A stretch of 64,000 nt of DNA from a virus (lineage: Duplodnaviria; Caudoviricetes), in IMG/VR virus record IMGVR_UViG_3300016482_000089, positions 1 to 64,000 of that record; one strand, given 5' to 3'. A model generated the notes under the pieces. It was given only the letters and a program-made list of their open reading frames with translations, did not search any database and was not told the origin of the DNA. Of the stretch, positions 19,129 to 62,518 are shown piece after piece (the stretch's first letter is position 1; every line of letters begins with the position of its first letter). The position numbers and the translations under genes are program-made.

Positions 19129-19131
19129 GGC

Positions 19132-43428: not shown

Positions 43429-43433
43429 GGCCG

Positions 43434-43571: not shown

Positions 43572-43677
43572 GTGGTCCCCCAACCTTCTGTGATGCCCCC
43601 TGTTCCACGGGCGGGGCCCGGGGGCAAGCGGCCCCGCTGGGCCGCCACCCCCGCGAGGGGGTGACGGCTTCTGCGGG

Positions 43678-44172
43678 TCAGGCCGCGGCGGCGCGATAGA
43701 CCGCGTAGGCCTCGTCGAAGGGCAGGCTGTTCAGCACCTTCACGGCGGAGAGCCGCGAGGGCAGGCCGGGGTCGCGCAGCTTCGCGGCGAGCGTCGCCGC
43801 GGGCATGCGCTTGGTCTCGTAGAGCTTCCCGTCTGCCTTCGTGAACAGCAGCTTCCCGCCGAGGGCGCGGCGCAGGTCGCGCCGGCGCAGCTCGTCGGCC
43901 AGCAGGTCGTCGATCACGCTGTCCGCGTCGGGCTGGTAGGAGAAGGGCTTACCGTCCCCGTCCAGCATGTCGGTGACACGGACGGGCAGGGTCTTCGCCT
44001 GCGCGTCCAGCCGCTCGCGGAGGCTGGTCGGGTGGTAGCGGTGGCAGCCACCGCGGCCCTCGTTCGAGACGTCGCCGGCCTTCTGGCCGTCGATCCAGAC
44101 CGCAGCCTGGAAGCAGTTCGTCTCCTCGGACATCGACGCGTAGTACTTGATCGACTTCAGCTCGATCTTCAT
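43678..44172 (-). CDS. Early hypothetical protein
   Basis: SEETNCFQA..IDG..GDVSNEGRGG motif; repeat and AAGGA upstream. Confidence 0.75.
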   Translation of the reverse strand: MKIELKSIKYYASMSEETNCFQAAVWIDGQKAGDVSNEGRGGCHRYHPTSLRERLDAQAKTLPVRVTDMLDGDGKPFSYQPDADSVIDDLLADELRRRDLRRALGGKLLFTKADGKLYETKRMPAATLAAKLRDPGLPSRLSAVKVLNSLPFDEAYAVYRAAAA

Positions 44173-44262
44173 GGGGTTGGTCCTTGCCCCCTATTCGACG
44201 GGCGAAGCCCGGGGGCGGTGGCGTTCGCGTGCCCTGGGGGGCCTCGCCCCCCAGGTGTTCGC

Positions 44263-44784
44263 TCAGGTGTGGAGCGACCAGTCGCGGCTCGCGCGGTGGC
44301 AGATCATGCCGCCGTGCAGCGCGCGCAGGCCGTCGAACTCCTGCGTCCAGAAGAAGCAGGGCTCCTGGTACCCGTCCGGCCGGATGTCGAGGACGCCGTC
44401 GCGCGCCGGGCGCGCCGGAATCAGCACCGGGTCGGCACCCTCCTCCTGGGCCGGCCAGAGGTGCTCGCGCTGCGCGAGCGCCGGGCCGAGGGAGGAGGTG
44501 ATGAGGTAGCGGAAGCACGCCCAGAACTCCTCCTCGACGCCGTGCTGGCGCGCGAAGGCGAGGGTGTCTGCGAAGTGCCCCGCGTCCCGGATGTGGATCG
44601 TCAGCGAGCCGGTCTTCTCCGGGAACTCCCGGCTGAAGTGCGGCTCGAACCTCGGCGGCAGCGGCTCCGCCCCCTGCTTCTGCAGGTTGCGCAGCGCGCC
44701 GACGGCGACGGCGACATCGGCGATCAGGCGCTTGCGGCGCTGGTCGGCCGTCTCGGCCGCCGGCGCCGGTATGGTGGTGGACAT
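44263..44784 (-). CDS. Early hypothetical protein
   Basis: MSTTIP...; C-terminal GGMICHR...WSLHT. Confidence 0.7.
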   Translation of the reverse strand: MSTTIPAPAAETADQRRKRLIADVAVAVGALRNLQKQGAEPLPPRFEPHFSREFPEKTGSLTIHIRDAGHFADTLAFARQHGVEEEFWACFRYLITSSLGPALAQREHLWPAQEEGADPVLIPARPARDGVLDIRPDGYQEPCFFWTQEFDGLRALHGGMICHRASRDWSLHT

Positions 44785-44881
44785 GGGGATGGTCCTGGCC
44801 CCCTGATCGACGGGCGGTGCCCGGGGGCGGTGGCAACGCTGGGCCGCGCCGGTGGGGGGCACCGGCGGGGCTTCGTAGGGA

Positions 44882-45088
44882 TCAGGTCTTGAGGACGAGG
44901 GCTTGGCAGCGCTTGCAGCGCCGCAGCCCGGCGTCCTGCGGGAAGCGGTACCCGGCCTCGAAGATCTCGGCCTGGGCGCCGCATCGGGGCGCGGGCGGCG
45001 CGTCCGACCAGAACATCGCCTGGTGGGCGATGCCGGTCGTCGTGCCGTCCTTCCGCCGGCCCGCGTACCAGAGGCTGTCGCGGGTCAC
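44882..45088 (-). CDS. Small Cys/His protein
   Basis: H...RCG...CKRC; GTGA coupling. Confidence 0.5.
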   Translation of the reverse strand: MTRDSLWYAGRRKDGTTTGIAHQAMFWSDAPPAPRCGAQAEIFEAGYRFPQDAGLRRCKRCQALVLKT

Positions 45089-45321
45089 GCGGCGAGCGGC
45101 TGCGCCGCGTCGTCGTTGGCGGCCCACCGGCGCTGGTCCTCCATCCGGAGGGCGTGGCGGGCCGCGCCCTCGGCGCTGGAGACAGCGCGGCGGGCGGCGC
45201 CGGCGGCGCGCTTGGCGTGGGCCTTGCGGAGCAGGCGGCGGGCGCGGCGAAGCAGGATGAGCGCCTCCTCGATCTGTCCGAGGGGCGTGGTCGCGGCCGA
45301 GGCCGCGATGGTGGTGGACAT
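45085..45321 (-). CDS. Small helical basic protein
   Basis: MSTTIA...; repeat upstream. Confidence 0.65.
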   Translation of the reverse strand: MSTTIAASAATTPLGQIEEALILLRRARRLLRKAHAKRAAGAARRAVSSAEGAARHALRMEDQRRWAANDDAAQPLAA

Positions 45322-45415
45322 GATGGGGTTGGTCCTTGCCCCCTATCTCGACGGGCGGTGCCCGGGGGCTGAGGCGGCCGCTGGCCGCGGGGCGCGCTGG
45401 GCGCCCCGGGCTGCG

Positions 45416-45853
45416 TCAGGCCACGGCGCGAGGGATGTCGCGCCAGGCGGTGGTGATCAGGTTCTCGGCGACCTCGATGTCGACGCCGCCATAGACCTTC
45501 GCCGCGGCGGTGAGCCGCTCGAAGACCGGGTCGGTGCCGCGGTCCCAGAAGCCGGCGCCGTGGCCGTTCCTGGTGAGCCAGAAGTCGACCCCGGCGCCAC
45601 TCATCGTGCGGCGCGTGAGCTCGACGTAGCGCTCCAGGTCGGCGGCGTGCTGCTCCTGGAAGTCGGCGCAGTCGGCCTCGGCCTCCGCCAGAAAGGCGGG
45701 GGCGAAGCCCTGCAGCGTGTCGCGGGGCGGCGGGCCGATGATGGCGCCGCCGGCGTCGGTCTGCTCCGGGAGGAGCCACTCGACGGCCTCGAGGTATCCG
45801 GTGGTGAACTCGTCGAGGCCCGGCGGGACGTGCTGGGCGACGAACTCGGGCAT
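45416..45853 (-). CDS. Conserved phage early protein
   Basis: GVDFWLTRNGHGAGFWDRG motif. Confidence 0.75.
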   Translation of the reverse strand: MPEFVAQHVPPGLDEFTTGYLEAVEWLLPEQTDAGGAIIGPPPRDTLQGFAPAFLAEAEADCADFQEQHAADLERYVELTRRTMSGAGVDFWLTRNGHGAGFWDRGTDPVFERLTAAAKVYGGVDIEVAENLITTAWRDIPRAVA

Positions 45854-45944
45854 GGTGCCCTCCTGTTCCCCCCTGCGCGACGGGCAGGCCCGGGGGGCGA
45901 GGTTGCTGCATGCCCTGGGGGGCCGAGGCCCCCCAGGTGTTCGG

Positions 45945-47150
45945 TCAGGCGCTGACCAGGTCCATCAGCTTGCCGGCGGCGCGCTCGACGTCGATGCGCC
46001 GGTCCTGGTGCGGGATGTCGCGGGCGAGGGCGGTGACGCCCTGCACCACGTCCCAGATGCTCCTGCAGCGGTGGCCCTCCTCGCCGAGCACGGACGCCAG
46101 CACGTCCTTGGCCTGCTTCTTGGAGAGCTCCAGCCGCTTCTGCATGAAGTCCACGACATCGTCGTCGTCATCCCCCACGCGGCGGGCCTTCGCGGCCGCG
46201 ACCTTGCGGGAGATGGTGGACGCCGAGATCTCGGTGAACTGCTCGATGGCGGGCTTCGCCTCGAGCATGAAGCGGCTGGGCAGGCCGGAGGTGTGGCGGA
46301 GCCGCAGCGTCTGCTTCTTCTCGCAGCCCCAGAGGTTGCGGTTCATGCAGACGGCGCGGAGGTACATCGTCTCGATCGAGAGCGAGCGGGAGCCCGTCTC
46401 GGAGTTCGACACGATGAAGCCGGGGAACATCAGGTCCGGCGACCCGTCGGCGAGCTTGCCGACTTCGATGGGATACTGGTCGCGGCAGAGGAACACGAAC
46501 ACGTCGCGATCCGAGGCGTAGAGCGTGGTGCTCTGCTTCGAGATCGGCGCGTTCGGGTCGTAGGTGCCACGACCCCAGTCGATGACGCCCGGGACCTTCC
46601 AGGTGTCGTCGATGCTCTTGCGGATGACATCGACCACCTCCGCGTCGTAGACGCGGCCGTAGTCCGGGCCGGTGATGGCGCGCAGCTCCGTGCGATCGTC
46701 CCAGCCCGCCTCCAGGATGCCGACGTTCTCGGACGGCAGCCGGTGGAGGCAGTGCTGCAACGCGATGCCGGCGATGGGCGCCGACAGCTTCTCGCGCATG
46801 AAGCTGGCCGGGGCGCCGACCTTCGAGCACAGCTGGCCGAAAGACCAGTGGTTCGGGTGGATCTGGCGGCCGGCCTTGTCCTCGAGCCAGAGGCGGTTCT
46901 CGTCGTCCATCTGAGCCCGGACCCGGAGGTCCGTGGTGGGCAGGATGCTGGCCGTGCTGCGCTCCTTGCGGGCGTGCACGGCCTCGGCGAGCTCGTCGAG
47001 GCTGAGGAAGCGCTGGTCATCGGGGCGGCTGAACCACTGCGACGACACGCTGCCGTCGCGGGAGCCCCGGGTCACATCGACCTTGCGGGCGCCGACCTGC
47101 TGCTCCATGGCAACGGGCCGGCCGTCCGGGGTGATGACGTTGGCGATCAT
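45945..47150 (-). CDS. DUF932-family protein
   Basis: NHWSFGQLC..VGAPA, RAITGPDYGRVYD, YASDRDVFVFL, NSETGSRS, RAVCMNRNLWG, LRHT. Confidence 0.85.
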   Translation of the reverse strand: MIANVITPDGRPVAMEQQVGARKVDVTRGSRDGSVSSQWFSRPDDQRFLSLDELAEAVHARKERSTASILPTTDLRVRAQMDDENRLWLEDKAGRQIHPNHWSFGQLCSKVGAPASFMREKLSAPIAGIALQHCLHRLPSENVGILEAGWDDRTELRAITGPDYGRVYDAEVVDVIRKSIDDTWKVPGVIDWGRGTYDPNAPISKQSTTLYASDRDVFVFLCRDQYPIEVGKLADGSPDLMFPGFIVSNSETGSRSLSIETMYLRAVCMNRNLWGCEKKQTLRLRHTSGLPSRFMLEAKPAIEQFTEISASTISRKVAAAKARRVGDDDDDVVDFMQKRLELSKKQAKDVLASVLGEEGHRCRSIWDVVQGVTALARDIPHQDRRIDVERAAGKLMDLVSA

Positions 47151-47328
47151 GGTGATCTCCCTTGCCCCCTGATCGACGGGCCGGGCCCGGGGGCAGAAGC
47201 GCCGGCGAGCACAACACAAGAGGTTGTGGTTCGCAACGGGAGATCGTGAAGCCCCCTGATCGACGGGCACGGCCCGGGGGCGGAAGCGGTGCGGGCGCCT
47301 GGCGCGCGGGGCGCGCCAGGGCTTCTGG

Positions 47329-47727
47329 TCAGGCGGGGACGGTGATGGTCGGCTCGCCGATGATCCAGCTCGCGGGATCCTGGTAGACTTGGATCGGCTC
47401 GGAGCGGTCGTTGTAGTAGACGGGGGCGATCATGCCGGCGTCCCGCCAGCGCGCGATGCTCTTCTCCACACGCTGCGCGTAGGCCGAGGCGGCCTGGCTG
47501 TCCGTGTCGTAGACGCAGACCACCTCGCGGTAGGTGCCGAAGTCGTGGTGGTTGGCCCTGATCTTCAGCTGGGCGCCCTCCGGCTCATCGCCGTAGACGC
47601 GCCGGAGCGCGGTGATGAAGGCGCGGCACTCGAGCTGGTTGAGCTCGGGGCCGCGGTCAAACTTCTCGCCGATCTGCGCGCAGTCCTCCTCGTAGGGGGC
47701 GCCGCCGATGTCGATGGTTTCGCGCAT
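47329..47727 (-). CDS. Conserved phage early protein
   Basis: GAPYEEDCAQIG...NHHDFGTYREV. Confidence 0.7.
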   Translation of the reverse strand: MRETIDIGGAPYEEDCAQIGEKFDRGPELNQLECRAFITALRRVYGDEPEGAQLKIRANHHDFGTYREVVCVYDTDSQAASAYAQRVEKSIARWRDAGMIAPVYYNDRSEPIQVYQDPASWIIGEPTITVPA

Positions 47728-47812
47728 ATGGGGTGTCCTGCCCCCTCTTTCGACGGGCTGGACCCGGGGGCGGTGGTGCAGCTGGCGCGCCGCCCCGAGG
47801 GGCGGCGGCTTC

Positions 47813-48301
47813 TCAGGCATGGCCTGCTTGGTATTCGAGTGCGACGGTCACCAGGGCTGCGTAGCCCTCGACGACTTCAATGTTGCCGAAGCGGCCGGTC
47901 CCGGGCGCGTCCATCATTCGCCACGCCAGGAGCGGCTGGCGGTCCTTCTGGAAGATGAGGGTGTAGAGCGCCGGGCTGGCCTCGCGTCCGATTTCGGACA
48001 GCCGCTCTCGCGGCCATTCGCTGGATGCCGGGCGCCAGAAGGTGCCGGCAGCGAACGAGGCAGCCCCGCCCTTCTTCTCGACGTGCTCTCCCGCGCGCTT
48101 GTACGCGATGGAGATGGGCTTGCCGGGGGCGGACGTATTCTTCCACTGCCCATTTCGGTACAGGCGGAAGATCTGCGTTTCGGCGACTCCCGCCGCAGTG
48201 ACTCCGTCCGATAGGCCTGCGAGGAGGAATTCGGCATCGGTCTTCTCGAAGCTCGTGCCTGTCGGCCTGAATCCGAGAACCAATCCGGCATACTCGCGCA
48301 T
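47813..48301 (-). CDS. Early hypothetical protein (less GC-biased)
   Basis: AGGAG RBS and repeat upstream. Confidence 0.6.
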   Translation of the reverse strand: MREYAGLVLGFRPTGTSFEKTDAEFLLAGLSDGVTAAGVAETQIFRLYRNGQWKNTSAPGKPISIAYKRAGEHVEKKGGAASFAAGTFWRPASSEWPRERLSEIGREASPALYTLIFQKDRQPLLAWRMMDAPGTGRFGNIEVVEGYAALVTVALEYQAGHA

Positions 48302-48392
48302 GGTTTGTACTCCTGCCCCCTATCTCGACGGGCATGACCCGGGGGCGGTGGTGATGCGGGGCCGCCGGCGCGTGGGGCGCCGGCGGCTTCTG

Positions 48393-48947
48393 CTACGCCG
48401 CGCGCTCGGCGGCGAAGTCGTTGTCCGGCTCAGGATGCCGGTAGGGGAGCAGCCCGCTGAACAGCGGGACGATCTCGTTCAGGTCGGCGATGTGCTGGTC
48501 GGTGACGCCGCGGAAGTCCGCGATGCCGTCGCCCAGCATGCGCTTGCCGTGCACGTAGGGACGGAGCGTCTCGCGGGTGCAGGCGATGCCGAGGGCCATC
48601 GGGATCCGCTCGCGGTCGTTGCTGATCGCGAGAGGGGCGATGTAGCCCACGCAGGTGAGGATGAAGCGATCGGCGTCGAGCTTCTCGGCGACGACCTTGA
48701 CCCAGGCGGCGATGCGCCCGAGCGACCAGCCGGGCTCGGCGGTCATGATCGAGGCGTTCTGCCCGTTCCGGATGATGAGGTGCGCGCCGAAGTGGGCGCT
48801 CCGCATGAACTGGCAGTACTCCTCGAGGCCGAGCTTCGCCATCGCCTCCGGGTCATTTTCCCCGAAGATGCGCGTGGTGATCGTCTCGGCAGTCAGGTCT
48901 TCGTCCTTGCGGACGCCAACCATGTGCATGGCCATCTGGTGTGGCAT
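48393..48947 (-). CDS. Early hypothetical protein
   Basis: AGGAG RBS and repeat upstream. Confidence 0.65.
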   Translation of the reverse strand: MPHQMAMHMVGVRKDEDLTAETITTRIFGENDPEAMAKLGLEEYCQFMRSAHFGAHLIIRNGQNASIMTAEPGWSLGRIAAWVKVVAEKLDADRFILTCVGYIAPLAISNDRERIPMALGIACTRETLRPYVHGKRMLGDGIADFRGVTDQHIADLNEIVPLFSGLLPYRHPEPDNDFAAERAA

Positions 48948-49036
48948 GGATGGTCTCCTGCCCCCTTCTTCGACGGGCTGGACCCGGGGGCGGTGGTGCA
49001 GCGGGGGCGTCCCGGGCCTTGCGGCCCGGGCGCTTC

Positions 49037-49765
49037 TCACGAGCGCGAACCCGCGCGCTGCATGACCGCGAGGGTGTCGTCGAGGTAGGTCCCGAGGTTC
49101 TCCTGGAACGCGCGGATCTGCTCAGCGAAGATGCGCTGGGCGACGCGGTTGCTCATCTCCGGCGACAGCTCCTTCGCGGTCGTGGGGATCAGCTGCCAGC
49201 CGGCGGCGGCGTAGTTGCCGTCGTGGGCGACCAGGTGCTCGTAGGCACGGTCGGCCTCGCGCGCGGCGTCGAAGACGACGCCGGCGTCGTCGTGCTGATC
49301 CTCGTTGGCCCCGACGCGACGGATCGCGTCGAGGGCCATGTCGGACCGGCCCGGCGGGGCGAAGGCAAAGGCGCGGCGCGGGATGCGGATGACGAGTTCG
49401 TACTCGGCTTCGTACATCACCAGGCGGCCGGACTTCGTGCCGTTGGCCACCTCTTCGGCGACCAGGGACACGACGGGCTTCTCGGGTTCCTCGCCGTCAT
49501 CCTTGCGGGGCGGCGCGGGGTTCGCGGGCGCGGGCTCGATCGGGTCGCGCACGCGCCTCGCGAAGTAGTCGTAGCCGAGCGCCTCGTCGCCGGGCTTGTG
49601 GACCCGGATGAGGCGGCGCTGCGGCTGGTTGGGGATCTCGATCGGCGCGTCGGTGTTGGCGGCGCTGGCGGCCCAGGTGCCGAGGTCCTCTCCGAGGTTC
49701 GACAGCAGGCCCGCGAGATCGAGCTTCTTGACCCCGATGTCGGGGCCGATCAGTGAGAAATGCAT
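49037..49765 (-). CDS. Early hypothetical protein
   Basis: Repeat upstream; strong codon bias. Confidence 0.65.
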   Translation of the reverse strand: MHFSLIGPDIGVKKLDLAGLLSNLGEDLGTWAASAANTDAPIEIPNQPQRRLIRVHKPGDEALGYDYFARRVRDPIEPAPANPAPPRKDDGEEPEKPVVSLVAEEVANGTKSGRLVMYEAEYELVIRIPRRAFAFAPPGRSDMALDAIRRVGANEDQHDDAGVVFDAAREADRAYEHLVAHDGNYAAAGWQLIPTTAKELSPEMSNRVAQRIFAEQIRAFQENLGTYLDDTLAVMQRAGSRS

Positions 49766-49847
49766 GGGGGGTTCCATGGCCCCCTGATCGACGGGCCAGG
49801 CCCGGGGGCGAAAGCGTGGCGGGCGCCGGGCCCGAAGGCCCGGAGCT

Positions 49848-50396
49848 TCATTGGGATGGGCCTGCGACGGAGGCGAAGAGGAACTCGAAATCGTCGGGCA
49901 CCTCGGTCCAGTAGCGGGCGAGGACGGCGAGCGCGGCCTCCTTCAGGCGGGGGCCGTGAGTCTTCCAGTCGGTCTTGCAGTCCTCAATGGCCGCATTCGC
50001 GTTCGGGCCGAGCACCGGGATCTCGCATATGAGCGTATCCGGGAGCCGGGGCCTGACCGCGAAGCGCAGGTAGAAATTGCGCTCGATGACAGCGGGCAGC
50101 TGCTCGCGCGCGGGTGGGGTGTCTCGCTCCACCAGGTCGTCCAGCCGCAGCTGGATGGAGGCGAGCGAGTCGGGGGGAAGACCGGCGTGGTTCGCATCGT
50201 AGGGTGCGATGACGAACTCGCCGGCGCCGGCGCGGCGGAACCGCACCGGCTTCTCGTAGGCCATCGCCGCGTGGACGGCGGACCAGGCGTCGCCGTCGGC
50301 GCCGAGCTCGCGGGCGAAGCCTGCGAAGTCGAGCGGCCGGAGGGCGGCGTCGGTGGTCGCGCAGCCCATCAGCGGCGGGCTGGTCGTGTCGGACAT
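49848..50396 (-). CDS. Early hypothetical protein
   Basis: AGGA RBS and repeat upstream. Confidence 0.6.
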   Translation of the reverse strand: MSDTTSPPLMGCATTDAALRPLDFAGFARELGADGDAWSAVHAAMAYEKPVRFRRAGAGEFVIAPYDANHAGLPPDSLASIQLRLDDLVERDTPPAREQLPAVIERNFYLRFAVRPRLPDTLICEIPVLGPNANAAIEDCKTDWKTHGPRLKEAALAVLARYWTEVPDDFEFLFASVAGPSQ

Positions 50397-50484
50397 GGGG
50401 ATGTGTCCTGGCCCCCTGGATCGACGGGCGGTGCCCGGGGGCGGTGGCAGTCGCAGGGCCCCGGGCGCGGTGGCGCCCGGGGCT

Positions 50485-52906: not shown

Positions 52907-52918
52907 GGGAAGACCGGG

Positions 52919-54082: not shown

Positions 54083-54130
54083 TCCCATGCGCGAGATGTG
54101 AGAAATCCGGGGCAGGCAGAGAGGGGGGCG

Positions 54131-55154: not shown

Positions 55155-55447
55155 TGGGCCTGACCGACGACGAGCGCCGGCGGCGCGGGCGGGAGCACGC
55201 CCTGCTGAACGCCCGCGCCGACCTGGCGCGCCGCGGCTCCTGCACGGCCGCGAGCGGCGTCTACGGCGAGGCCTACAACGGCGAGCACCAGGCGCTGCTG
55301 GACCACATCGAGGACCGCCTCGCCGCGGTGCGGCGCGAGGCCCGCCGGGCGACGCCGGAGTGGCGCTCCCAGGTGGCGCTCGCGGCGCTCGTCACCATCG
55401 TGGTGGTGCCGGCGGCGGCCTTTGCGATCGCCAGCCTGCTGAGGTGA
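55151..55447 (+). CDS. Hypothetical protein with C-terminal TM
   Basis: VALAALVTIVVVPAAAFAIASLL. Confidence 0.55.
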   Translation: MMGLTDDERRRRGREHALLNARADLARRGSCTAASGVYGEAYNGEHQALLDHIEDRLAAVRREARRATPEWRSQVALAALVTIVVVPAAAFAIASLLR

Positions 55448-55449
55448 CC

Positions 55450-55764
55450 ATGCCATCCCAGGCGTTCCCCGCCGTCGGCGGCATCCTGCCGAGCTCCATG
55501 GTCGGCCACCGGCCCCCGCAGCGCCGCATGGGGCGCTTCTGGCTGCACCAGCGGCTGATCGAGAACTCGCCGGCCGACGCGCTGGCGGCGCTCGACGGCT
55601 GCATCATCGTCCGCGCCGAGGCGCACTATGCGACCGGCCGGATCGAGTACGACGCGATCCATCCCGACTTCGAGCCCCTCAGCGAGGGGCAGCCGCTGCC
55701 GCTCTACCGGCCGGTCATCAGCGGCGGCAAGCGCCTGCGCTGGGAGCGCGAGGTCACGGCCTGA
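55450..55764 (+). CDS. Hypothetical protein
   Basis: GAGG RBS; IEYDAIHPDFEPLSEG..P.Y. Confidence 0.6.
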   Translation: MPSQAFPAVGGILPSSMVGHRPPQRRMGRFWLHQRLIENSPADALAALDGCIIVRAEAHYATGRIEYDAIHPDFEPLSEGQPLPLYRPVISGGKRLRWEREVTA

Positions 55765-56233
55765 CGGGCTGGTAGGACTGCGCGACGTAGGGTCGGGCCA
55801 GGCAGCGGACGCCGAGCTGCTGCAGCAGCTCCCACCACTCCTCGGGGCTGCGCACGATCGAATAGCCGAAGCCCATCGCGGTGACGGCGGCCTGGAAGGC
55901 GCGCTGGGCGTCGTTCTGCTCGCCGGCGTCGATCTTCCGCAAGGCATCCTTGGCCGTCTTCACCTCCGCGAAGTGGATCCGCCCACCGGGAAGGAGAATC
56001 ACGAGGTCGGCGACGCCCGGCATCACGCCTTCTTCAACAAGGCGCGCAGCCTCCAGCGCGTTCCGGAAGCCGCCGTTCGGCACGGCGAAGACGAGGCATT
56101 CGCCCTTAGGAACGCAGCGTTTCCAGTACTCTATCAGCGAGATCTGCAGGTCGCTTTCGGGGTGCCGGGGCGCGCGCCGTCGGCGCGCGAAACCCGGTGC
56201 ATCAACCGAAATTCTAGGCTTGCGCTTCCCCAT
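55754..56233 (-). CDS. VRR-NUC domain endonuclease
   Basis: ESDLQ, FAVPNGG, GVMPGVADL, FAEVK, Q..FQ..V..MGF.Y. Confidence 0.88.
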   Translation of the reverse strand: MGKRKPRISVDAPGFARRRRAPRHPESDLQISLIEYWKRCVPKGECLVFAVPNGGFRNALEAARLVEEGVMPGVADLVILLPGGRIHFAEVKTAKDALRKIDAGEQNDAQRAFQAAVTAMGFGYSIVRSPEEWWELLQQLGVRCLARPYVAQSYQPVRP

Positions 56234-56498
56234 TTCCTTGGGAAATGGTAGCCGTTGGTTGGGTACGGGTGCGCGCCTTGGGTGTGGGGCCCTTCAGGGC
56301 CTGCTCGACCTTGCGAAGGATCGCAAGGGTCGGGGACCAGGGCCGGCGGCGGCGATGCCGGCCGCGACGGCTCCCGTGCGCGCGGAACGAACGGAGGGAG
56401 TTTGGATGCACGCCGGCAAGCTCGGCCAGGGCCCGCTTCGTCAGGCCTCGGCTCTGAGCCGTCGCTTCCAGTTCGGCGATTACCTCGTCGATCCGCAT
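56214..56498 (-). CDS. Cro-like HTH repressor
   Basis: GLTKRALAELAGVHPNSL; divergent from cI-like gene. Confidence 0.75.
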   Translation of the reverse strand: MRIDEVIAELEATAQSRGLTKRALAELAGVHPNSLRSFRAHGSRRGRHRRRRPWSPTLAILRKVEQALKGPTPKARTRTQPTATISQGNGEAQA

Positions 56499-56512
56499 AT
56501 CTTCTCATACAC

Positions 56513-56526
56513 CACAAACCTTTGTG
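56513..56526. promoter_or_regulatory. Palindromic operator in cro/cI intergenic region
   Basis: CACAAACCTTTGTG; one of 11 CACAA-N4-TTGTG-like sites. Confidence 0.8.
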
Positions 56527-56545
56527 TCGCAACGAGGACTGCTCC

Positions 56546-57286
56546 ATGACCTCCAGCCGGTGGCAAAACCCTGCCGTCCAGCAGGAGCGGCGCAACGATT
56601 CCGACCACAGGCGCCGCGCCTTCGAGGACTTCATGCAGGCGCACCGGCTGAAGCCGGCGGCCTGGGCCAGGGCCGCCGGCCTGCCGAACGCGAACGCGAT
56701 CTACGCCTACCGGAACGGCACGACCGACTTCCTCAGCCAGAGCACCCTCAACGCGCTCGTCCGGGCCGTGCCAGGCGCCACGGTGGCCGAGATGCTGGGC
56801 GAGGCGCCGCAGCCGATGCCCGTGCGGCTCCTGCCCTGCCGCGCCGAGGCGCGCGCCGGCGTCTGGCAGGCCGACACCCGCGCCCGCGTCCTGCGCGAGA
56901 TCGAGTTCCCGCTGCCGGTCGACATGCACGCCGACGAGCTGGTGAAGCTGACCGACGGCCAGGCCGACCAGGTCTACCGCGCGCCGTCCTACCTCGCGGT
57001 GCAGAACTTCGCGTCGCTGACGAGGCCGCTGAAGGCCGGCGACCGGGTCATCGTCCGCGGCATCGGGCCGAAGGGCCACGAGATCACCGTCCGCGAGGTG
57101 GCCGGCACGCCGGAGGCGCCCGAGCTCATCTTCGCGACGCAGACCCGGCCCGACCTCCGCGAGAAGCGCCTGCCGCTCCCCGTCTGGCCCTATGACGGCC
57201 GCGTCTGGGAGCACGACGGGATCCGGTACCACATCGAGAGCCGGGTCTTCATGATGATGCTGTTCGAGGAGCAGCGGTACAGCTGA
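56546..57286 (+). CDS. CI-like repressor (HTH + S24-like C-terminal fold)
   Basis: LKPAAWARAAGLPNANAIYAYRNG HTH; EARAGVW linker; no clear Ser/Lys dyad. Confidence 0.7.
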   Translation: MTSSRWQNPAVQQERRNDSDHRRRAFEDFMQAHRLKPAAWARAAGLPNANAIYAYRNGTTDFLSQSTLNALVRAVPGATVAEMLGEAPQPMPVRLLPCRAEARAGVWQADTRARVLREIEFPLPVDMHADELVKLTDGQADQVYRAPSYLAVQNFASLTRPLKAGDRVIVRGIGPKGHEITVREVAGTPEAPELIFATQTRPDLREKRLPLPVWPYDGRVWEHDGIRYHIESRVFMMMLFEEQRYS

Positions 57287-57330
57287 GCCGCGCCTTGCCC
57301 GGCGCCGTGCCGCGCCACTATGGTGCGCCC

Positions 57331-57344
57331 CACAAAGTTTTGTG
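57331..57344. promoter_or_regulatory. Operator downstream of TTGCCC-N18-TATGGT promoter
   Basis: CACAAAGTTTTGTG. Confidence 0.7.
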
Positions 57345-57355
57345 GGGCAGCGGGA

Positions 57356-58021
57356 GTGGGGCGCAAGCGCTGGGGGGCCAGGCGGAAGCAGCCAGCGCGG
57401 CGCAAGCCCGGCGCCGGGTCAGGTCGCTACGTCCGCCGCGAGTGGACGACGATCTACCGTGACCCGGCCACCGGCCTCCTCCTGCAGGTCGGCCCCGACC
57501 ACGGCACCGAGGAGCGCGCCAACCACGCCGGCGGCGTCATCAAGGGCAAGCGCCTCGCCTACAACGACCAGGACCGGCCCTACTTCACCGAGGGCGCGCG
57601 CGCCGTCGCCTCCACCGTGCTCGACCAGCTGCGCGCCGGCGGCTGCCTGGCCGCCGTCTACCAGCAGGGGCGCTGGGTGTGCCCGCGGAACCGCCTGGCC
57701 GCGAAGCGCCTCGAGGCGCGGCGCTTCGACGCGGCCGAGGCCTTCACCGTGCTGTGCCGCACCGCCGGCGTCGTGCGGCGACTGACCGGCGGCTACGAGT
57801 TCCGCACCGACCGCGGGACGCAGACCGAGAACCCGCGCGCGGTGAAGGCCCGGAAGGCGGTCGTCGCCCGGGCCCTGCGGCTCGGCTCGACGCACTGGAA
57901 CCAGCTGATCGACGTGCTGCTCTGCGAGCGGCACCCGGACGCGCGCGAGCTGCGCGCCTTCCTCGCGGCGCTCGACGCCTACGCCGACCTGCTGCGCCTC
58001 GCCGCGGCCGAGGGGATCTGA
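57356..58021 (+). CDS. Hypothetical protein, possibly DUF6456-like late regulator
   Basis: Operator-controlled single gene; helical C-terminus ...FLAALDAYADL. Confidence 0.5.
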   Translation: MGRKRWGARRKQPARRKPGAGSGRYVRREWTTIYRDPATGLLLQVGPDHGTEERANHAGGVIKGKRLAYNDQDRPYFTEGARAVASTVLDQLRAGGCLAAVYQQGRWVCPRNRLAAKRLEARRFDAAEAFTVLCRTAGVVRRLTGGYEFRTDRGTQTENPRAVKARKAVVARALRLGSTHWNQLIDVLLCERHPDARELRAFLAALDAYADLLRLAAAEGI

Positions 58022-58038
58022 GGGGCCAGACGGCATTG

Positions 58039-59420
58039 TTGACGTGATTCAGGGAACCCCTAGGGGTTGTGCCTGATCCGTATCTCCATTCGCGGCTCGC
58101 TGAGCGGCACTGCGGCGCAGGCCAAGCCCGCGCCGCTGATCTCCGCTCTCCCCGCGCGTTCGCCGACGACGCGTGTCCTCGGCAGGTTCGGGCATGCCTT
58201 GCCCTACCCATTCTCTCGTCCGTCGCTCGATCCAGCGCGCCGCAGCGTGGTCACGGTCATGCACCGCCCCACACCCCTCGCAGGTCCAGACCCGCGTTCG
58301 CAGCGACAGGCGCTTGCCGATCAGACCGCAGTCCGGGCAGCAGCCCGTGCTGTGGTCGAACCGGCCGATCGCGTGCACGATCCGCCCCCGCCAGGCGGCC
58401 TTGTAGCCGATCTGGCGGTAGAGCTGGCTGAGGCCCGCATCCGCGACGGACTTCGCTAGGTGGCGGTTCCGGGCCATGCCCTTCACCGCCAGGTCCTCCA
58501 CCCCAATCACCGCCGCCTTGGCTGTCAGCGCCGATGAGAGATGGTGATGACCGTCTGCCCGCCGGTCGCGCACCTTCCGGTGCTGCCGGCCGAGCAGACG
58601 CAGCCGGCGCGCATGGCGCCGGCTGACCTCCCGTGCCTCCTTCTTCCTCACATGCTCCGCACGGCTGTAGCGCCGCTGCAGACGCTTCAACTTCTTCTCG
58701 GCTTTGCGCAGGTGCCGCGGCGCCTCGTGCCGTGTGCCGTCGCTCTCGGTGAGTAGGGCCGACAGCCCGCCATCCGCGCCCAGCACATCCACACTCGGCT
58801 CCGGCACCGCGACGCGCCGCATAGGAGGCGGTGCCTCGAACTGGACCGAGAAGGTCCGGCGCTCGCCATCAAGCCGCAGCCGACAGGCGAGGAGCTTCCC
58901 CTCCGGCCAGCGACCGCCCCGGAGCTTCACCTCGCCGAGGCGAAGAATATCGGCTCTGCCGCGCGCCTTCGTCGCATGCGTGCGGGTCAGGTCGGGTAGG
59001 GCGGAGGAGGCCAGGTAGACCGAGCCCTCGCCCGCCTTACGGCGCTTGAACTTCGGGAAGCCGGCGCGCTGGCGCAGCGGCAACCCGGCGCGGATGTCGA
59101 CGAAGGCGCGGTCGCGCGCCTTGCAGTACTGCCGAACCACGTCGACGAGCGCGATCGCCGGAACCTCGGCCAGCCACGGCCTATCAGCCTTCCAGACCGG
59201 CAGCCACTTCGTCAGATCCGCGTAGGAGATGCTCCTGCCGGTGCAGGCTCGGTGCGTCTCATCGAACTCCAGGCATCGGTTCCAAGCCCAGCGGAGCGCG
59301 CCCACCCAGCCGCGCAGCAGATGCTCCTGCTGCGCGCTCAGATAGGCTCGGAACAGGGCTGCCTGAACGACCTCGTTCACCACTCGTTCCAAGATGGTGG
59401 GGCGCCCTGAATCTCGTCAA
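58039..59420 (-). mobile_element. Solo tnpB element (IS1341-like) with 16-bp inverted repeats
   Basis: TTGACGTGATTCAGGG 58039-58054 vs CCCTGAATCTCGTCAA 59405-59420; palindrome AACCCCTAGGGGTT 58055-58068; no tnpA. Confidence 0.7.
58049..59392 (-). CDS. tnpB: TnpB RNA-guided endonuclease
   Basis: RWAWNRCL, GFPKFKRR, RuvC D (LGADGG), E (VEDL), D (HDRD), Zn ribbon CPDC/CEGC. Confidence 0.92.
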   Translation of the reverse strand: MERVVNEVVQAALFRAYLSAQQEHLLRGWVGALRWAWNRCLEFDETHRACTGRSISYADLTKWLPVWKADRPWLAEVPAIALVDVVRQYCKARDRAFVDIRAGLPLRQRAGFPKFKRRKAGEGSVYLASSALPDLTRTHATKARGRADILRLGEVKLRGGRWPEGKLLACRLRLDGERRTFSVQFEAPPPMRRVAVPEPSVDVLGADGGLSALLTESDGTRHEAPRHLRKAEKKLKRLQRRYSRAEHVRKKEAREVSRRHARRLRLLGRQHRKVRDRRADGHHHLSSALTAKAAVIGVEDLAVKGMARNRHLAKSVADAGLSQLYRQIGYKAAWRGRIVHAIGRFDHSTGCCPDCGLIGKRLSLRTRVWTCEGCGAVHDRDHAAARWIERRTREWVGQGMPEPAEDTRRRRTRGESGDQRRGLGLRRSAAQRAANGDTDQAQPLGVP

Positions 59421-59443
59421 TAGTTGAGGGGGCCAGAAACGCA

Positions 59444-59480
59444 GAAAGCCCCGCCAGCTCGTGCCGGCGGGGCTTTCCTT
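59444..59480. terminator. Bidirectional intrinsic terminator
   Basis: GAAAGCCCCGCC...GGCGGGGCTTTCCTT. Confidence 0.75.
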
Positions 59481-60093
59481 GTCGGGTGGGTTTAGGCGTC
59501 GAGGGTGGCGACCCCGATCTCTGCCTTCTCCGCGCGCTCTAGGCTGCAACGCAGCGCGGAATCTCTGTTGATGTCCTCCCACCCGGAACTCGGGGAGGGT
59601 CACCACCGGTAGGCCGCCAGGGTGCGCCCTGGACTTCAACGACCTCGACGAGCCAGTTGGCCCGTGCCGCGTCCAGCGCGGCCAGTGAGCGTCGAGCAGT
59701 GGTGGTGACGGAGGCACTCGCTCCTTGGCCTCGCCCACTCCGGTGGGCGACGTAGGCCGCCTCTTCGCAGGGGCCCGTCAGGTTGGGCATGCAGGGCAAC
59801 GGCGGCGGGGAGGGGAGTGCGGGGGTGTGCAGCGGCATCGTCTGACCGCCGGCGCGTCGGGACCTCGTCCCGCGACGCTGGGGGGCAGCTCCCTTGTGCT
59901 CGAACCCCCTGGACTGCGTTGCTGCATGGGGGAGCTGAGGTGGGAGGGGCCGGCGGAGGCGGAGCCCCGCGGCACGAAAGAGATATGGTGACGCGACAGA
60001 CCCAACGCAAGGTTGTGTCGCGCGGCCTCGGTTCGACGGGCGAAGTAGAGGCGGACTCCGCGGGCCGCCGGCGCGGGGGCGCCGGGCGGCTTC

Positions 60094-60351
60094 CTAGTGC
60101 TGCATGCCCACTCGAAGCGCGGCGTTGCCTTGGAGGGCGTCGGCCGGGACGGTCCGCAGGCCTGCGAGCCGGGACATGCTGGAGGCGCCGACCATCAGGT
60201 GGCAGGCGCGCAGCGTGGCCTCGGTTCGGATGGTCGGGTCCGTGCTCGAGCGGGCGATGTCGAGGAGCCGGTCGGCCTCGGCGGTGAGAGCCTCGCCGGT
60301 GGCGGCGAGCATCTCCTGCAGGGCCTGCGGCAGTGCGAGGGATTGGGGCAT
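60094..60351 (-). CDS. Early hypothetical protein
   Basis: GGAG RBS and repeat upstream. Confidence 0.6.
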   Translation of the reverse strand: MPQSLALPQALQEMLAATGEALTAEADRLLDIARSSTDPTIRTEATLRACHLMVGASSMSRLAGLRTVPADALQGNAALRVGMQH

Positions 60352-60441
60352 GGTAGCTCCGTGCCCCCTGATCGACGGGCACGGCCCGGGGGCGAATGGC
60401 GGTGCGGGCGACCTGGCGCGCGGTGGCGCCAGGTGCGTGCT

Positions 60442-60609
60442 TCAGAAGCGCTGGGGCGGGTAGATCTGGCGGATCGTGGCGCGCTCGGCGATGCGGCGCT
60501 GCTGGCGCCGCTCGCGGGCGCTCTCGTAGAGCGCGTAGAGGATGAAGCCGAGGGCGAACAGGCCGCCGACGGTGCCGGCGATCTGCAGGATGCTCCAGAG
60601 CATCAGCAT
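60442..60609 (-). CDS. Small single-TM protein
   Basis: MLMLWSILQIAGTVGGLFALGFILYALY plus basic tail. Confidence 0.6.
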   Translation of the reverse strand: MLMLWSILQIAGTVGGLFALGFILYALYESARERRQQRRIAERATIRQIYPPQRF

Positions 60610-60681
60610 GATATGGTCCTCGCCCCCTGTTTCGACGGGCACGGCCCGGGGGCTGAAGCAGTGCGGGCGGGCCGCCCCCCG

Positions 60682-61092
60682 TCAGAACGGGGGGCCGGCT
60701 GCCGCTTCTTCCGCGATGAGGCGATTGCGCCACTCGCGGGGGAGGAGGTGGTCTCGGACGTAGACGAAGACCGTGGTGAAGTCGTCCGGGTCGTTGATGG
60801 CCCAGGCGCGGTCTTCGAGGATGGCGGTGCGCAGCAGCATGGGGCTGCCGAGCTCGTAGGCGATTTCGATGGCGGTCTCGCGGCTGCAGAACCGGCCGCC
60901 GAACAGGATGATGTCGGCGTGCCGGTAGGGCAGCTGCCGCGCTGCTGGGCCTGGGTGCAGGCCGTTCTCATAGGCCTTGGCGAGGCCCATGACGTCGGCC
61001 TCGCCGAAGTGCTCGAGGAGGCGTTCCTCGGCCTCCATGAGGTCGTAGGCAGGCGCGGTCGGATCCGCCGCGGAGACGAGCTCCGTGGACAT
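60682..61092 (-). CDS. Hypothetical protein
   Basis: GAAGGA RBS; candidate promoter TTGAGA-N17-CATATG upstream. Confidence 0.65.
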   Translation of the reverse strand: MSTELVSAADPTAPAYDLMEAEERLLEHFGEADVMGLAKAYENGLHPGPAARQLPYRHADIILFGGRFCSRETAIEIAYELGSPMLLRTAILEDRAWAINDPDDFTTVFVYVRDHLLPREWRNRLIAEEAAAGPPF

Positions 61093-61193
61093 GGCGAAAT
61101 TCCTTCATGTGGGGGGATGGAAAGAGGGGCCGGTGGCCGCTCTCTCGATGTCATATGGTAACGATATTGCCGAATCTCAAGCCCTGACATGAC

Positions 61194-61231
61194 GAAAGCC
61201 CCGCCGAACGGGGGCGTCCGGCGGGGCTTGG
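61194..61231 (-). terminator. Intrinsic terminator
   Basis: AAGCCCCGCCG...CGGCGGGGCTT, TTTCGT tail on minus strand. Confidence 0.65.
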
Positions 61232-61232
61232 G

Positions 61233-61448
61233 TTAGGCGGCCGCGGCGCGGGGCCGCGGCGGGATCTCGATACCGGTGTCGGCGTCGAAGGTGCGGCCCG
61301 GCCGCAGAGGGGTGACCGGGTCGGGCTTGCTGGGCGGGGGCTGGTCGCCGTCGAGCTTGCGCGCGATGCGGCGGCCGAGGGCGTCGCTCACCTGCACCAG
61401 GGCGGGGGAGATGATGACGGCCGCCCAGATGATGGCGATGAGGGGCAT
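61233..61448 (-). CDS. Small membrane/secreted protein
   Basis: MPLIAIIWAAVIISPALV; AGGAG RBS and repeat upstream. Confidence 0.6.
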   Translation of the reverse strand: MPLIAIIWAAVIISPALVQVSDALGRRIARKLDGDQPPPSKPDPVTPLRPGRTFDADTGIEIPPRPRAAAA

Positions 61449-61539
61449 GTGCTGCTCCTGGTGCCCCCTGATCGACGGGCGAGGCCCGGGGGCTGTGGCG
61501 TTCGCGTGCGCCCCGGCGCGCGGTGGCGCCGGGGGCGGT

Positions 61540-61848
61540 TCAGCTGGTGGGGTGGAGGGTGTAGCCGCCTGGGCTGCCGCGGCTGGGCCGGGTGGCGGTG
61601 ATGTGGTGGCCGTGCTTGCGGAGGGTCCAGATCGCGTTCGAGATGCCCCCCTGCGGGTTGCTGTAGGTCTCCAGCGCGCTCTCCGGGTACACCTCGTAGA
61701 AGAGGTCGATCGAGCGCACGACCTTGCCCGGCGTCCGCTGCAGGATCTTCAGCACCTGCTCGGCGAGGGTGTTCGGGCGCACGCCGATGCGGCTGCGTCG
61801 CTTCCGGCCTGGCGGCAGGGGGGCGAACTGGGCGCTCTGCTGCTGCAC
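61540..61848 (-). CDS. Small winged-helix DNA-binding protein
   Basis: VLKILQRTPGKVV...ISNAIWTLRKHGHHI...GGYTL. Confidence 0.7.
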   Translation of the reverse strand: MQQQSAQFAPLPPGRKRRSRIGVRPNTLAEQVLKILQRTPGKVVRSIDLFYEVYPESALETYSNPQGGISNAIWTLRKHGHHITATRPSRGSPGGYTLHPTS

Positions 61849-61943
61849 GGGTGGGTCTCCTGTGGTGCCCCTGTCTCGACGGGCACGGCCCGGGGCGATG
61901 GCGGTGCTGGCCGCGGCGCGCGCGGTGGCGCGCCGGGCTGCGG

Positions 61944-62165
61944 TCAGGTGTCGGTGGTGGGCGGCGCCACGGCGTCGATGCGGGCGATGACGTCGTCCAT
62001 GTGCGCGACGACCTCGGCCGCGTCCTCGTCGTCGAGGGTGGCGCGGTCGGGCAGGCCGTCATTGCCCCGGAGGCAGTGCCCCTCGAGCAGGACGTCGCGC
62101 TCCTCGGCGATGATGTCGCGCGCCTCGCGGAGGAGGCTGACGATGTCGGCGGGGAGGTCGCTCAC
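61944..62165 (-). CDS. Small acidic hypothetical protein
   Basis: GTGA coupling. Confidence 0.55.
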   Translation of the reverse strand: MSDLPADIVSLLREARDIIAEERDVLLEGHCLRGNDGLPDRATLDDEDAAEVVAHMDDVIARIDAVAPPTTDT

Positions 62166-62419
62166 TGGTGGCGGTATCCGACGAGGCGGTAACCGCCGTT
62201 TCGGCCGATGCGGGAGTCGATCTCCCAGCCGAGGCGGCGGAGGTCCTCGACCGCGTGCTTGGCGCTGCGGCCGGGGTGGCGGAGGCGCTTGAAGGCGGCC
62301 TTCGGCCAGGCGAGCTCGCAGAGCATGACGGCGGGCAGCCAGACCTCGCGGTGCTTCACGAGGGTGCTGAGCACGGCATAGTTGGCGGTGTTCTCGCGCG
62401 GGTAGCGCGGTTCGGGCAT
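62162..62419 (-). CDS. Small winged-helix DNA-binding protein
   Basis: VLSTLVKH...AKHAVEDLRRLGWEIDSRIGRNGGYRL. Confidence 0.7.
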   Translation of the reverse strand: MPEPRYPRENTANYAVLSTLVKHREVWLPAVMLCELAWPKAAFKRLRHPGRSAKHAVEDLRRLGWEIDSRIGRNGGYRLVGYRHQ

Positions 62420-62518
62420 GGGGGCTGCTCCTGTGGTGTCCCCCTCTCGACGGGCGGGCCCGGGGGTGTGGGTGGTCCGCTGGCCGCTGGCGCCGGTGGT
62501 CGGGCGCCAGGGCTGCGT

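Follow-up and report, generated by a model that had tools for sequence, protein, structure and literature searches.

The repeat and its genomic setting

The question raised by this locus is what a short, G+C-rich hairpin motif is doing in front of one early gene after another in an uncultured phage. The source is an 82,944-bp (~83-kb) IMG/VR record, of which the window, i.e., the whole stretch of DNA that was analysed, comprises the first 64,000 nucleotides. The phage is high-GC and temperate, its genes include siphovirus-type tail genes and a CI/LexA-like repressor, and its nearest named terminase relative is from an alphaproteobacterium. All motif copies of the record lie in two leftward early-gene blocks (A and B), and genes for RecT and a PDDEXK exonuclease adjoin block A on its downstream side.

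We found 17 copies on the minus strand of the window, 29-32 nt each (typically 31) and 77-90% G+C, at all of the places given in a preliminary description. The consensus proposed there was also recovered, in which an inner hairpin of 4 bp and a GTCG(A) bulge are enclosed by two outer arms of 6 nt, C-rich on the 5' side and G-rich on the 3' side. In these copies the bulge is one-sided and measures 7-9 nt; the inner loop had been called freely varying, which needs qualification, as its length is 3 nt in 15 of the 17. A 19-nt core pattern with at most one mismatch gave 15 matches, all on the minus strand, versus 0.26 expected from shuffles, and a more permissive scan of all 82,944 bp of the record added just the degenerate copies at 45868 and 62439, with none elsewhere. 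Two partial cores, reported near 51056 and 60033, are 11-nt bulge-side matches that lack the outer arms: the first is probably a chance match or a remnant, and the second is a decayed cassette.

Motif copies and partial cores
43595-43625, minus: copy 1; GTGGA bulge variant, start codon 22 nt downstream
44186-44216, minus: copy 2
44798-44828, minus: copy 3; the RNA minimum-free-energy fold of 44770-44880 consists of hairpin 1 (described below) and the bulged motif hairpin
45338-45369, minus: copy 4; 9-nt bulge
45868-45897, minus: copy 5, degenerate; outer stem shifted to six C/six G, both arms changed
47164-47194, minus: copy 6; downstream of the palindrome at 47215-47228, before the DUF932-like gene
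47251-47281, minus: copy 7; own hairpin 1, no Shine-Dalgarno sequence (SD) or gene, followed by the palindrome and then copy 6
47740-47771, minus: copy 8; sense-strand U-G at the inner closing pair
48315-48346, minus: copy 9; U-G variant
48960-48991, minus: copy 10; U-G variant
49779-49809, minus: copy 11
50411-50442, minus: copy 12; its cassette is the first in block A and follows the head gene 50485-51048
60363-60393, minus: copy 13
60622-60653, minus: copy 14
61463-61493, minus: copy 15
61867-61896, minus: copy 16, degenerate; outer stem one C and one G shorter, both arms changed
62439-62467, minus: copy 17, degenerate, outermost pair lost; first cassette of block B, where collinearity with L285, the nearest related phage, ends
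51054-51064, minus: partial core; its 11 nt match the bulge side alone and lie in the leader of the block-A head gene
60031-60041, minus: partial core; a normal hairpin 1 precedes it, and a promoter-like box of the ACCATAT type comes after it

Cassette architecture

The motif is half of a regular cassette of 82-105 nt, a feature absent from the first description, in which the upstream stop codon is followed by a variable GC hairpin (hairpin 1), a C-rich spacer of 16-19 nt, the bulged hairpin, the SD and the ATG. The cassette occupies 15 of the 16 intergenic gaps longer than 60 nt in the two blocks, with 28-53 nt from stop to motif and 11-22 nt from motif to start. The 3' arm, rich in G, directly adjoins the SD of the gene that follows. 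A ribosome-binding site and a start codon do follow most copies, as had been noted, but closer than the ~15-25 nt then given, the SD beginning 1-8 nt and the start codon lying 11-22 nt downstream. Computed SD accessibility is nearly unchanged by the motif (0.48 intact versus 0.47 with the motif shuffled and 0.46 with it deleted). Hairpin 1 is variable in sequence and perfectly paired, and lies 16-20 nt upstream of every copy except that at 47164; at 62439 it is imperfect.

Two other families of sites occur in the blocks. ACCATAT-type promoter-like boxes form a distinct family, and every gene in blocks A and B has either such a box or the motif. The palindrome CACAA-N4-TTGTG, of repressor/operator type, is over-represented and is separate from the bulged motif. 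U-tailed terminators are also present.

Other features of the blocks
44829-44881, minus: upstream half of an example cassette; 8-bp perfect hairpin at 44847-44867, no U tail, then an 18-nt C-rich spacer
45945-47150, minus: 401-aa DUF932-like gene with motif copy 6 in front
47215-47228: operator-like palindrome in block A, between copies 7 and 6
50485-51048, minus: block-A head gene, preceding motif copy 12
61145-61232, minus: the sole long gap without a cassette; a U-tailed hairpin (canonical terminator type) is followed by a promoter-like pair, TTGAGA / ACCATATGAC, before the gene 60682-61092
62519-62968, minus: first gene of block B, without the motif
62969-63084, minus: head of block B; operator-like palindrome 63071-63084 and ACCATATATC box 63022-63031

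Evidence for a fold in the sense RNA

Among 47 copies from three phages, 99.6% of the stem cells are paired, and three cells are changed on both sides. One copy has C-G replaced by U-A at one pair, both arms being altered, and in two copies both arms grow or shrink together. The bulge varies from 7 to 10 nt between invariant blocks across phages, which is tolerable for a fold and not for rigid DNA half-sites, and therefore favours a fold. The strand is indicated by the inner closing pair, with 11 cases of U-G and none of C-A; the asymmetry first reported for the copies at 47740, 48315 and 48960 is real, and its position is the loop-closing pair. Loops of hairpin 1 point the same way, with six UNCG and three GNRA loops on the sense strand versus none and two, respectively, on the opposite strand. 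Taken together, the paired stem changes, the variation in bulge length, the sense-only U-G pairs and the loop types favour the folding of the coding strand that had been suggested, specifically a sense-strand RNA fold; the suggestion of a single-stranded DNA promoter found no support. A check for covariation yielded the three compensated cells but no strong covariation within this motif type, as its stems are almost invariant.

These observations bear on the idea that the motif is a double-stranded DNA site, at which a phage DNA-binding protein blocks elongation in the lysogen, as the stoperators of mycobacteriophage L5 do. The sites are numerous and asymmetric, lie in short intergenic gaps in a single orientation relative to transcription, and belong to a temperate phage with a CI/LexA-like repressor. 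However, the repressor-type palindrome is a different, separately over-represented site, the spacing varies inside the motif, the arms change together, and the wobbles are sense-only; we consider this explanation highly improbable.

Conservation and specificity

The motif is near-identical in at least three related phages, G001 (22 copies), G002 (11 copies) and L285, again always on the transcribed strand. Between orthologues, the proteins of these phages show 30-70% identity, and for most of the genes that follow the motif the other phages have no homologue. Near-invariance of the motif between phages with diverged proteins, and in front of unrelated genes, favours selection over recent copying. 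A further phage, G006, adds to this evidence: in the equivalent position it has a different cassette of two hairpins, in 29 copies, and this cassette covaries clearly, one pair being C-G in 18 copies, U-A in 10 and G-C in one. In common with the bulged motif, it leaves a GUCG unpaired and has its G-rich arm directly next to the SD, and it shows five sense-strand G-U cases versus one C-A.

A search with Rfam covariance models found no match at the gathering score over the window and none on any copy at E up to 10 (window and L149); this search also covered CRISPR direct repeats, with no match. Host origin had been raised as a threat to novelty. Matches were single per contig among the matches listed (120 genome stretches), four whole alphaproteobacterial genomes had one each, and no bacterial genome examined had more than one copy, which is not the pattern of a dispersed host repeat of the REP/BIME type. 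The bulged hairpin is a real, strand-specific, structured signal that is absent from the Rfam catalogue.

Evidence for gene exchange at the motif

Collinearity of the phage with L285 ends no more than 2 nt from the 3' edge of motif copy 17. Past this point the cross-matches are confined to cassettes, all-against-all, at 73-81%. The homology breakpoint thus sits exactly at a motif, which agrees with the recombination-joint role suggested earlier and, together with the tandem paralogues of G006 that have cassettes between them, supports gene shuffling at motif sites. This single junction supports the view that such sites may mark gene swaps between phages. An integron-like gene-cassette system received no support: the tyrosine recombinase family PF00589 is absent from this record and from the complete relative G001, positive controls having been used, and no GTTRRRY-type attC core sites (R''/R') were seen on reading the motif copies.

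A stronger version of this view takes the motif to be mainly a recombination linker or selfish repeat, which persists by its own spread and by exchange of the genes that it flanks, any effect on expression being secondary. The breakpoint and the all-against-all matches between phages are consistent with it, as are copy 47251 with no gene behind it, the tandem paralogues with cassettes between them in G006, and the RecT and exonuclease genes beside block A. Conversely, strict orientation, restriction to two operons, a fixed distance to SD and start, and preserved pairing point to a role in expression, and no multi-copy bacterial contig occurs in the matches described above. We therefore regard a mainly recombinational role as improbable.

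Transcriptional explanations

The cassette could also be read as a terminator followed by a promoter: hairpin 1 would terminate, and the motif would be a phage-specific promoter, used either by an unrecognised phage polymerase or by the host RNA polymerase together with a factor that the phage makes or delivers in the virion, with a start in the G run and a leader of 12-15 nt. We consider this, the main alternative, possible, although doubtful. Such terminator-promoter logic is that of T4-type PeSL (promoter-early stem-loop) cassettes and of the phiC31 early promoters. The motif occurs once per gene, upstream of ORFans, and is absent exactly where an ACCATAT-type box is present; its short, fixed distance to the SD is compatible with a fixed transcript start; and the CGTCGA string in the bulge is reminiscent of ECF-type -10 boxes. 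One cassette copy in G006 lies directly 3' of a U-tailed terminator. As to a possible factor, matches to Sigma70 r2 and r4 are recorded for the MuF-type head protein of a relative whose terminase is 62% identical, and G001 encodes a 1602-aa virion-module protein of no recognisable family.

However, none of the ~47 hairpins 1 has a U tail, though U-tailed terminators do occur in the blocks, and the MuF proteins of the motif-bearing phages contain only InPase and MuF domains. Neither sigma region 2 nor a T7-type polymerase was found in this record, G001 or G002, the polymerase search being one without a positive control. No sigma-70-type hexamers are present in the motif, and a promoter scan of 43200-63100 returned one site, at 60608-60635, versus 0.7 expected; this is an overlap by chance. 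The block of highest conservation would sit in the promoter "spacer", the two conserved blocks being only ~13 bp apart, and arm-to-arm compensation, sense-only wobbles and variation in bulge length would be left unexplained. Some 17 operator-less promoters for host enzymes would also be awkward in a repressor-controlled temperate phage.

Processive antitermination of the nut/put type, in which the nascent hairpin modifies RNA polymerase to read through later hairpins, would account for the recurrence, along a hairpin-rich operon, of a hairpin that is on the sense strand and has a conserved bulge, and block A, with exo/RecT genes at its end, is similar to an operon of the lambda PL type. Yet known antitermination systems need no more than one or two sites per operon, the tight link to the SD is unexplained, the hairpins to be crossed have no U tails, and no arginine-rich motif is seen in the block-head proteins, which are acidic or unremarkable. 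This makes antitermination very improbable.

A proposed intercistronic signal

We give an even chance to the reading that we prefer, in which the cassette is a signal between the cistrons of the mRNA; it would serve processing, stability or translation and be read by a conserved factor, probably one of the host. Long transcripts would start at the heads of the operons, from a few ACCATAT-type promoters under repressor control, and cross the cassettes, both hairpins folding in the sense RNA, as the pairing data support. The conserved factor would recognise the G-C stems and the unpaired GUCGA-purine bulge; a host origin is probable for it, given that the motif does not vary across phages whose proteins have diverged to 30-70% identity. 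The message would thus be punctuated, hairpin 1 serving as a protective 3' end of the upstream cistron, and the motif hairpin as a protective or organising 5' structure of the downstream cistron that sets the translation start. About 16 unrelated ORFan genes may thereby be given a common expression signal. As a by-product, each gene boundary would provide 50-100 nt of near-identical DNA as a substrate for homologous recombination, and the phage has its own RecT and PDDEXK exonuclease; we therefore propose, from the one junction with L285, that single genes may be swapped there.

Several points stand against the preferred reading: covariation within this motif type is thin, the 11 U-G cases fall at a loop-closing pair, the computed SD accessibility barely responds to the motif, the rule of an ACCATAT box or a motif for each gene is also predicted by a second promoter class, one G006 copy comes after a U-tailed terminator, and a 10-bp hairpin is too short for a classical RNase III site. 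A bolder proposal, which we consider unlikely, is that the bulged hairpin is a common RNA operator (or hairpin-type promoter) of one trans-acting factor, possibly virion-delivered, that switches some 16-29 unrelated ORFans on or off together, each lineage having co-evolved its own version of the hairpin. If true, this would be a plug-and-play expression standard, under which newly acquired genes are controllable at once.

Comparison with known systems

The early RNase III sites of T7 and T3 comprise about two helical turns (an irregular hairpin of ~20 bp or more) with an internal loop, and cutting leaves a protective hairpin on the upstream message. The present motif is likewise intercistronic, a hairpin whose internal loop is asymmetric and which lies in an early polycistronic mRNA; however, it has only 6 + 4 bp with a one-sided bulge of 7-10 nt. 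L5 stoperators, which are 13-bp duplex sites of the repressor, are similar in being numerous, asymmetric, intergenic and oriented with transcription, whereas here the repressor-type site is a separate palindrome and the motif behaves like a fold. REP/BIME elements and puf-type stabilisers are GC-rich intercistronic hairpins of host genomes that protect upstream mRNA segments; the likeness applies to hairpin 1, whereas the motif, found in just a few phages, is linked to the SD.

Two systems put forward in the preliminary description, the start-associated sequences (SAS) of cluster K mycobacteriophages and the T4-type PeSL, hold as analogues, although their defining sequence features are lacking here. 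The cluster K SAS is a 13-nt sequence that includes the SD and lies 3-7 nt from the start, and the extended form (ESAS) has imperfect arms of 17 nt (PMC3203893); the function of the SAS is still untested (PMC12699233). Like these elements, the motif accompanies non-structural genes only, in one orientation, just upstream of starts and, across phages, before unrelated genes, and the ESAS is likewise an inverted repeat with a variable spacer immediately before the ribosome-binding site. The differences are that the sequences are not similar, that 11-22 nt and a separate SD lie between the motif and the start, that the host phylum is another one, and that the variable upstream hairpin is additional here. 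The PeSL combines a strong sigma-70-like promoter (-35, -10 and an AT-rich upstream region) with a stem-loop demonstrated to terminate (PMC2839356, PMC4122927), whereas the present cassette has neither sigma-70 hexamers nor hairpin U tails, and its conserved part is the bulged hairpin abutting the SD. Nevertheless, both are ~100-nt composite intergenic stem-loop cassettes in tens of copies, mostly before ORFans, and both mark gene gain, loss and replacement between relatives, as seen here in the breakpoint at a motif and in downstream genes mostly without a homologue.

Results

The motif and its cassette

All 17 of the minus-strand copies counted in the preliminary description were found on that strand. 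Each copy is a bulged hairpin of 29-32 nt with a one-sided bulge, mostly of the GUCGA type. When up to one mismatch was allowed, the 19-nt core matched 15 times versus 0.26 expected. Relaxed scanning of the entire record contributed only two further copies, both degenerate, with no match beyond 43.6-50.4 kb and 60.3-62.5 kb, i.e., the two leftward gene blocks (A and B) on either side of the rightward replication and repressor block. Every copy belongs to a larger, highly regular cassette, which starts at the upstream stop codon (mostly followed by GAAGCC) and continues with hairpin 1, a perfect stem of 7-11 bp that varies in sequence from copy to copy and has no U tail, a C-rich spacer of 16-20 nt and the motif; the Shine-Dalgarno sequence (SD) lies 1-8 nt and the start codon 11-22 nt past the motif. 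The intergenic lengths with a cassette are 82-105 nt, except for one 72-nt gap and one 178-nt double cassette, and a cassette is present in 15 of the 16 gaps that exceed 60 nt within the two blocks. It should be noted that the copy starting at 47251 has no gene behind it; an operator-like palindrome and then a second motif copy follow, as if a segment without any gene had entered between two motifs.

The only gap of over 60 nt that lacks a cassette (61093-61232) contains a hairpin that ends in a U-rich tail and, after it, a promoter-like pair, TTGAGA / ACCATATGAC. Boxes of the ACCATAT type (ACCATATNNC; three exact occurrences versus 0.03 expected) and one variant are located as follows:

59980-59989, minus strand: ACCATAT-type box
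61150-61159, minus strand: ACCATAT-type box
63022-63031, minus strand: ACCATAT-type box
about 51123, minus strand: variant ACCATAT box

The boxes head leftward transcription units and adjoin CACAA-N4-TTGTG palindromes, and the three genes directly behind them have no motif. They are probably the -10 regions of repressor-controlled early promoters. Behind the ACCATATCTC box, the minus strand at 59440-59990 has approximately 500 nt without a convincing open reading frame of high GC3, ending in a canonical U-tailed terminator (about 59440-59480) that adjoins a TnpB element; this stretch may represent a non-coding RNA or a small gene.

Folding and strand

Of the stem cells in 47 copies of this first motif type, 99.6% are paired; two are unpaired, and three show a change on each side. 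In one copy of the complete relative G001 the same pair is altered on both arms, from C-G to U-A, and in copies 45868 and 61867 both arms are lengthened or shortened together; the bulge, flanked by invariant blocks, differs in length from copy to copy. At the inner closing pair, 11 copies have U-G and none has C-A. The loops of hairpin 1 are UUCG/UCCG in six cases and GNRA in three when read on the sense strand, versus zero and two, respectively, on the other strand, and RNA folding of the whole cassette yields both hairpins. Together, the pairing, the joint changes of the arms, the variable bulge, the U-G pairs and the loop types favour a sense-RNA structure, in line with the coding-strand folding proposed in the preliminary description. 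Within the first motif type the stems show little variation, and the evidence for the fold is accordingly modest.

Relatives with the same motif and proposed exchange of genes

Scanning related phages with a covariance model of the motif revealed 22 copies in G001 (100.7 kb) and 11 in G002 (92 kb); in each of these genomes the copies share a strand and form two blocks. The scan also found, in the 97-kb contig L285 (terminase identity 75%), a variant of the motif with GTGGAGA as its bulge. Searches of metagenomes by repressor alignment or by motif pattern returned none beyond these same phages. The proteins common to the motif-bearing phages are only 30-70% identical, and the genes that follow the motif mostly lack homologues in the other phages. 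The motif is far better conserved than its surroundings, a contrast better explained by selection through a conserved reader than by recent copying. Since no early phage protein is comparably conserved, we infer that this reader is a host component.

Comparison with L285 agrees with the suggested shuffling of genes at the repeats. Collinear similarity extends through the head of block B and its first gene, and ends no more than 2 nt from the 3' edge of motif copy 17; past this point, going downstream, the two phages have unrelated genes, and cross-matches (73-81%) are confined to the cassettes.

A second cassette type

In the phage G006 the two-block layout recurs with a different cassette, present in 29 copies on one strand. 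Its elements are, in order, a variable hairpin, a hairpin of 8-9 bp, an unpaired CAGUCGCG, and a hairpin of 6-7 bp with its G-rich arm directly next to AAGGAC. The stems of this cassette covary: one pair is C-G in 18 copies, U-A in 10 and G-C in one, and others exchange A-U or G-C. In the last hairpin, by reading of the copies, the third pair alternates between U-A and G-C, and shorter copies lack that pair on both arms. Over the G006 cassettes as a whole, sense G-U versus C-A is 5 to 1, which also favours a sense-RNA structure. Both cassette types have an unpaired GUCG where helices meet, and in both a helix of a C run with a G run ends at the SD. Three tandem paralogous genes of 170-178 aa (positions 6078-7846 of L149, a piece of G006) have a cassette between each and repeat units up to 90% identical, and look like the result of recent duplication through the cassettes, another sign of the proposed shuffling.

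The phage and its probable host

The IMG/VR record is linear, 82,944 bp long (the window being its first 64 kb), approximately 81% complete and 72% G+C. It encodes a terminase, a portal, RecT, a PDDEXK exonuclease, DnaB, a DUF1376 protein, a C5 methylase and an ISL3 transposase; the tail genes in the window are those of a J-type tip protein and of a probable tape-measure protein, called by size and position. One further gene is relevant to lifestyle:

56255-57286, plus strand: 343-aa repressor-like protein without Pfam hits, matched in a language-model protein-atlas search to HTH-plus-S24 (CI/LexA-like) repressors

From this gene content the phage looks temperate. The 343-aa protein is kept in all relatives (42-44% identity in G001, G002 and G006). 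A DNA-level search found no relatives among cultured phages; the nearest named terminase relative is from Rhodovarius crocodyli (61% identity) and those of the ISL3 transposase are from Rhodobacterales (46-47%), and these matches make an alphaproteobacterial host likely.

The ISL3 transposase (34271-35641, minus strand) has a C-terminal HNH hit (E 4e-4), and PF01844 is also recorded for several of its homologues. The large terminase, located outside the window (G000, the whole record, 68273-70801; L009, its later piece, 4273-6801), has 842 aa. Only about half of its length is covered by its closest homologues (500-520 aa), and in more distant, long homologues Pfam gives LAGLIDADG, Hom_end and intein-splicing hits; these comparisons make an intein-type insertion likely.

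Identities considered for the motif

No Rfam family matched at any threshold, including E up to 10 on the motif copies (window and L149), and a host dispersed repeat was rejected, as only single matches per contig occurred among the at least 120 genome stretches listed and one match in each of four alphaproteobacterial genomes. A gene-cassette recombination system has no support, as no tyrosine recombinase partner was found in this record or in G001. The GTCGCG start of the G006 hairpin resembles some type I-C CRISPR repeats; CRISPR-repeat mimicry was dropped because no Rfam CRISPR-DR family matched, even with E up to 10. The idea that the motif insulates the SD by holding it unpaired was abandoned, the computed effect being negligible. 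The 343-aa protein was rejected as the motif factor because of its likeness to CI/LexA-type repressors and its presence also in G006 with its other cassette. The block-head proteins have no basic motif and were set aside as N-like antiterminators; the first has no family hits, and the sole match of the second is a PHROG of unknown function.

Discussion

We see roughly an even chance that the cassettes act at the RNA level, as intercistronic punctuation of polycistronic early mRNA. Transcription would read through hairpin 1, which would serve the 3' end of the upstream cistron, and the invariant bulged hairpin would provide recognition and a 5' structure for the downstream cistron, being read by a conserved factor with processing or protection as the outcome. 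Recombination at the repeats would be a by-product. Of this picture, the sequences show the anatomy, conservation, pairing, strand bias and junction; the read-through, the processing or protection and the factor are inferred.

The main rival, that the motif is a factor-dependent promoter, appears rather unlikely to us. It would account for each gene having either an ACCATAT box or a motif, and for one G006 copy that follows a U-tailed terminator. The motif contains no sigma-70-like hexamers, and neither a sigma region 2 nor a T7-type polymerase was found in the three genomes (this phage, G001 and G002), the polymerase search having been run without a positive control. The rival also draws on virion proteins, namely a MuF head protein of a relative with sigma-70 domain hits on record, and a 1602-aa virion-module protein of unknown family in G001. 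The former has 1118 aa (terminase-P0132 97-kb contig, ENA sample ERZ21849424), with Sigma70_r2, Sigma70_r4, InPase and Phage_Mu_F hits, and could carry a sigma-like domain associated with the virion. In G001 and L285 the MuF proteins have InPase and MuF only; in L285 the N-terminus of this protein has only one homologue beyond its own record and a poor single-sequence model (pLDDT 53). The 1602-aa protein (G001 76556-81364; L152, a piece of G001, 14556-19361), whose gene follows that of the head protease, has no match in Pfam, PHROG or the protein atlas.

Phage early regions are rich in ORFans, whose expression and exchange are poorly understood beyond a few model phages. The motif is invariant across strongly diverged phages, attached to unrelated genes and positioned exactly at a recombination junction, features that make it a candidate for a universal expression adaptor and for an exchange joint of accessory genes. 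Because it is short and sharply defined it is directly testable, and a possible use is as an insulator part for high-GC hosts.

Literature searches by literal sequence and by keyword returned nothing on the motif, and neither Rfam nor the searchable literature describes its sequence and structure. Elements of this kind are already known: repeated regulatory cassettes precede early ORFans in other phages, as the T4-type promoter-early stem-loop cassettes (PeSL) and the start-associated sequences of cluster K mycobacteriophages (SAS/ESAS). The cassette described here differs from both families in defining features.
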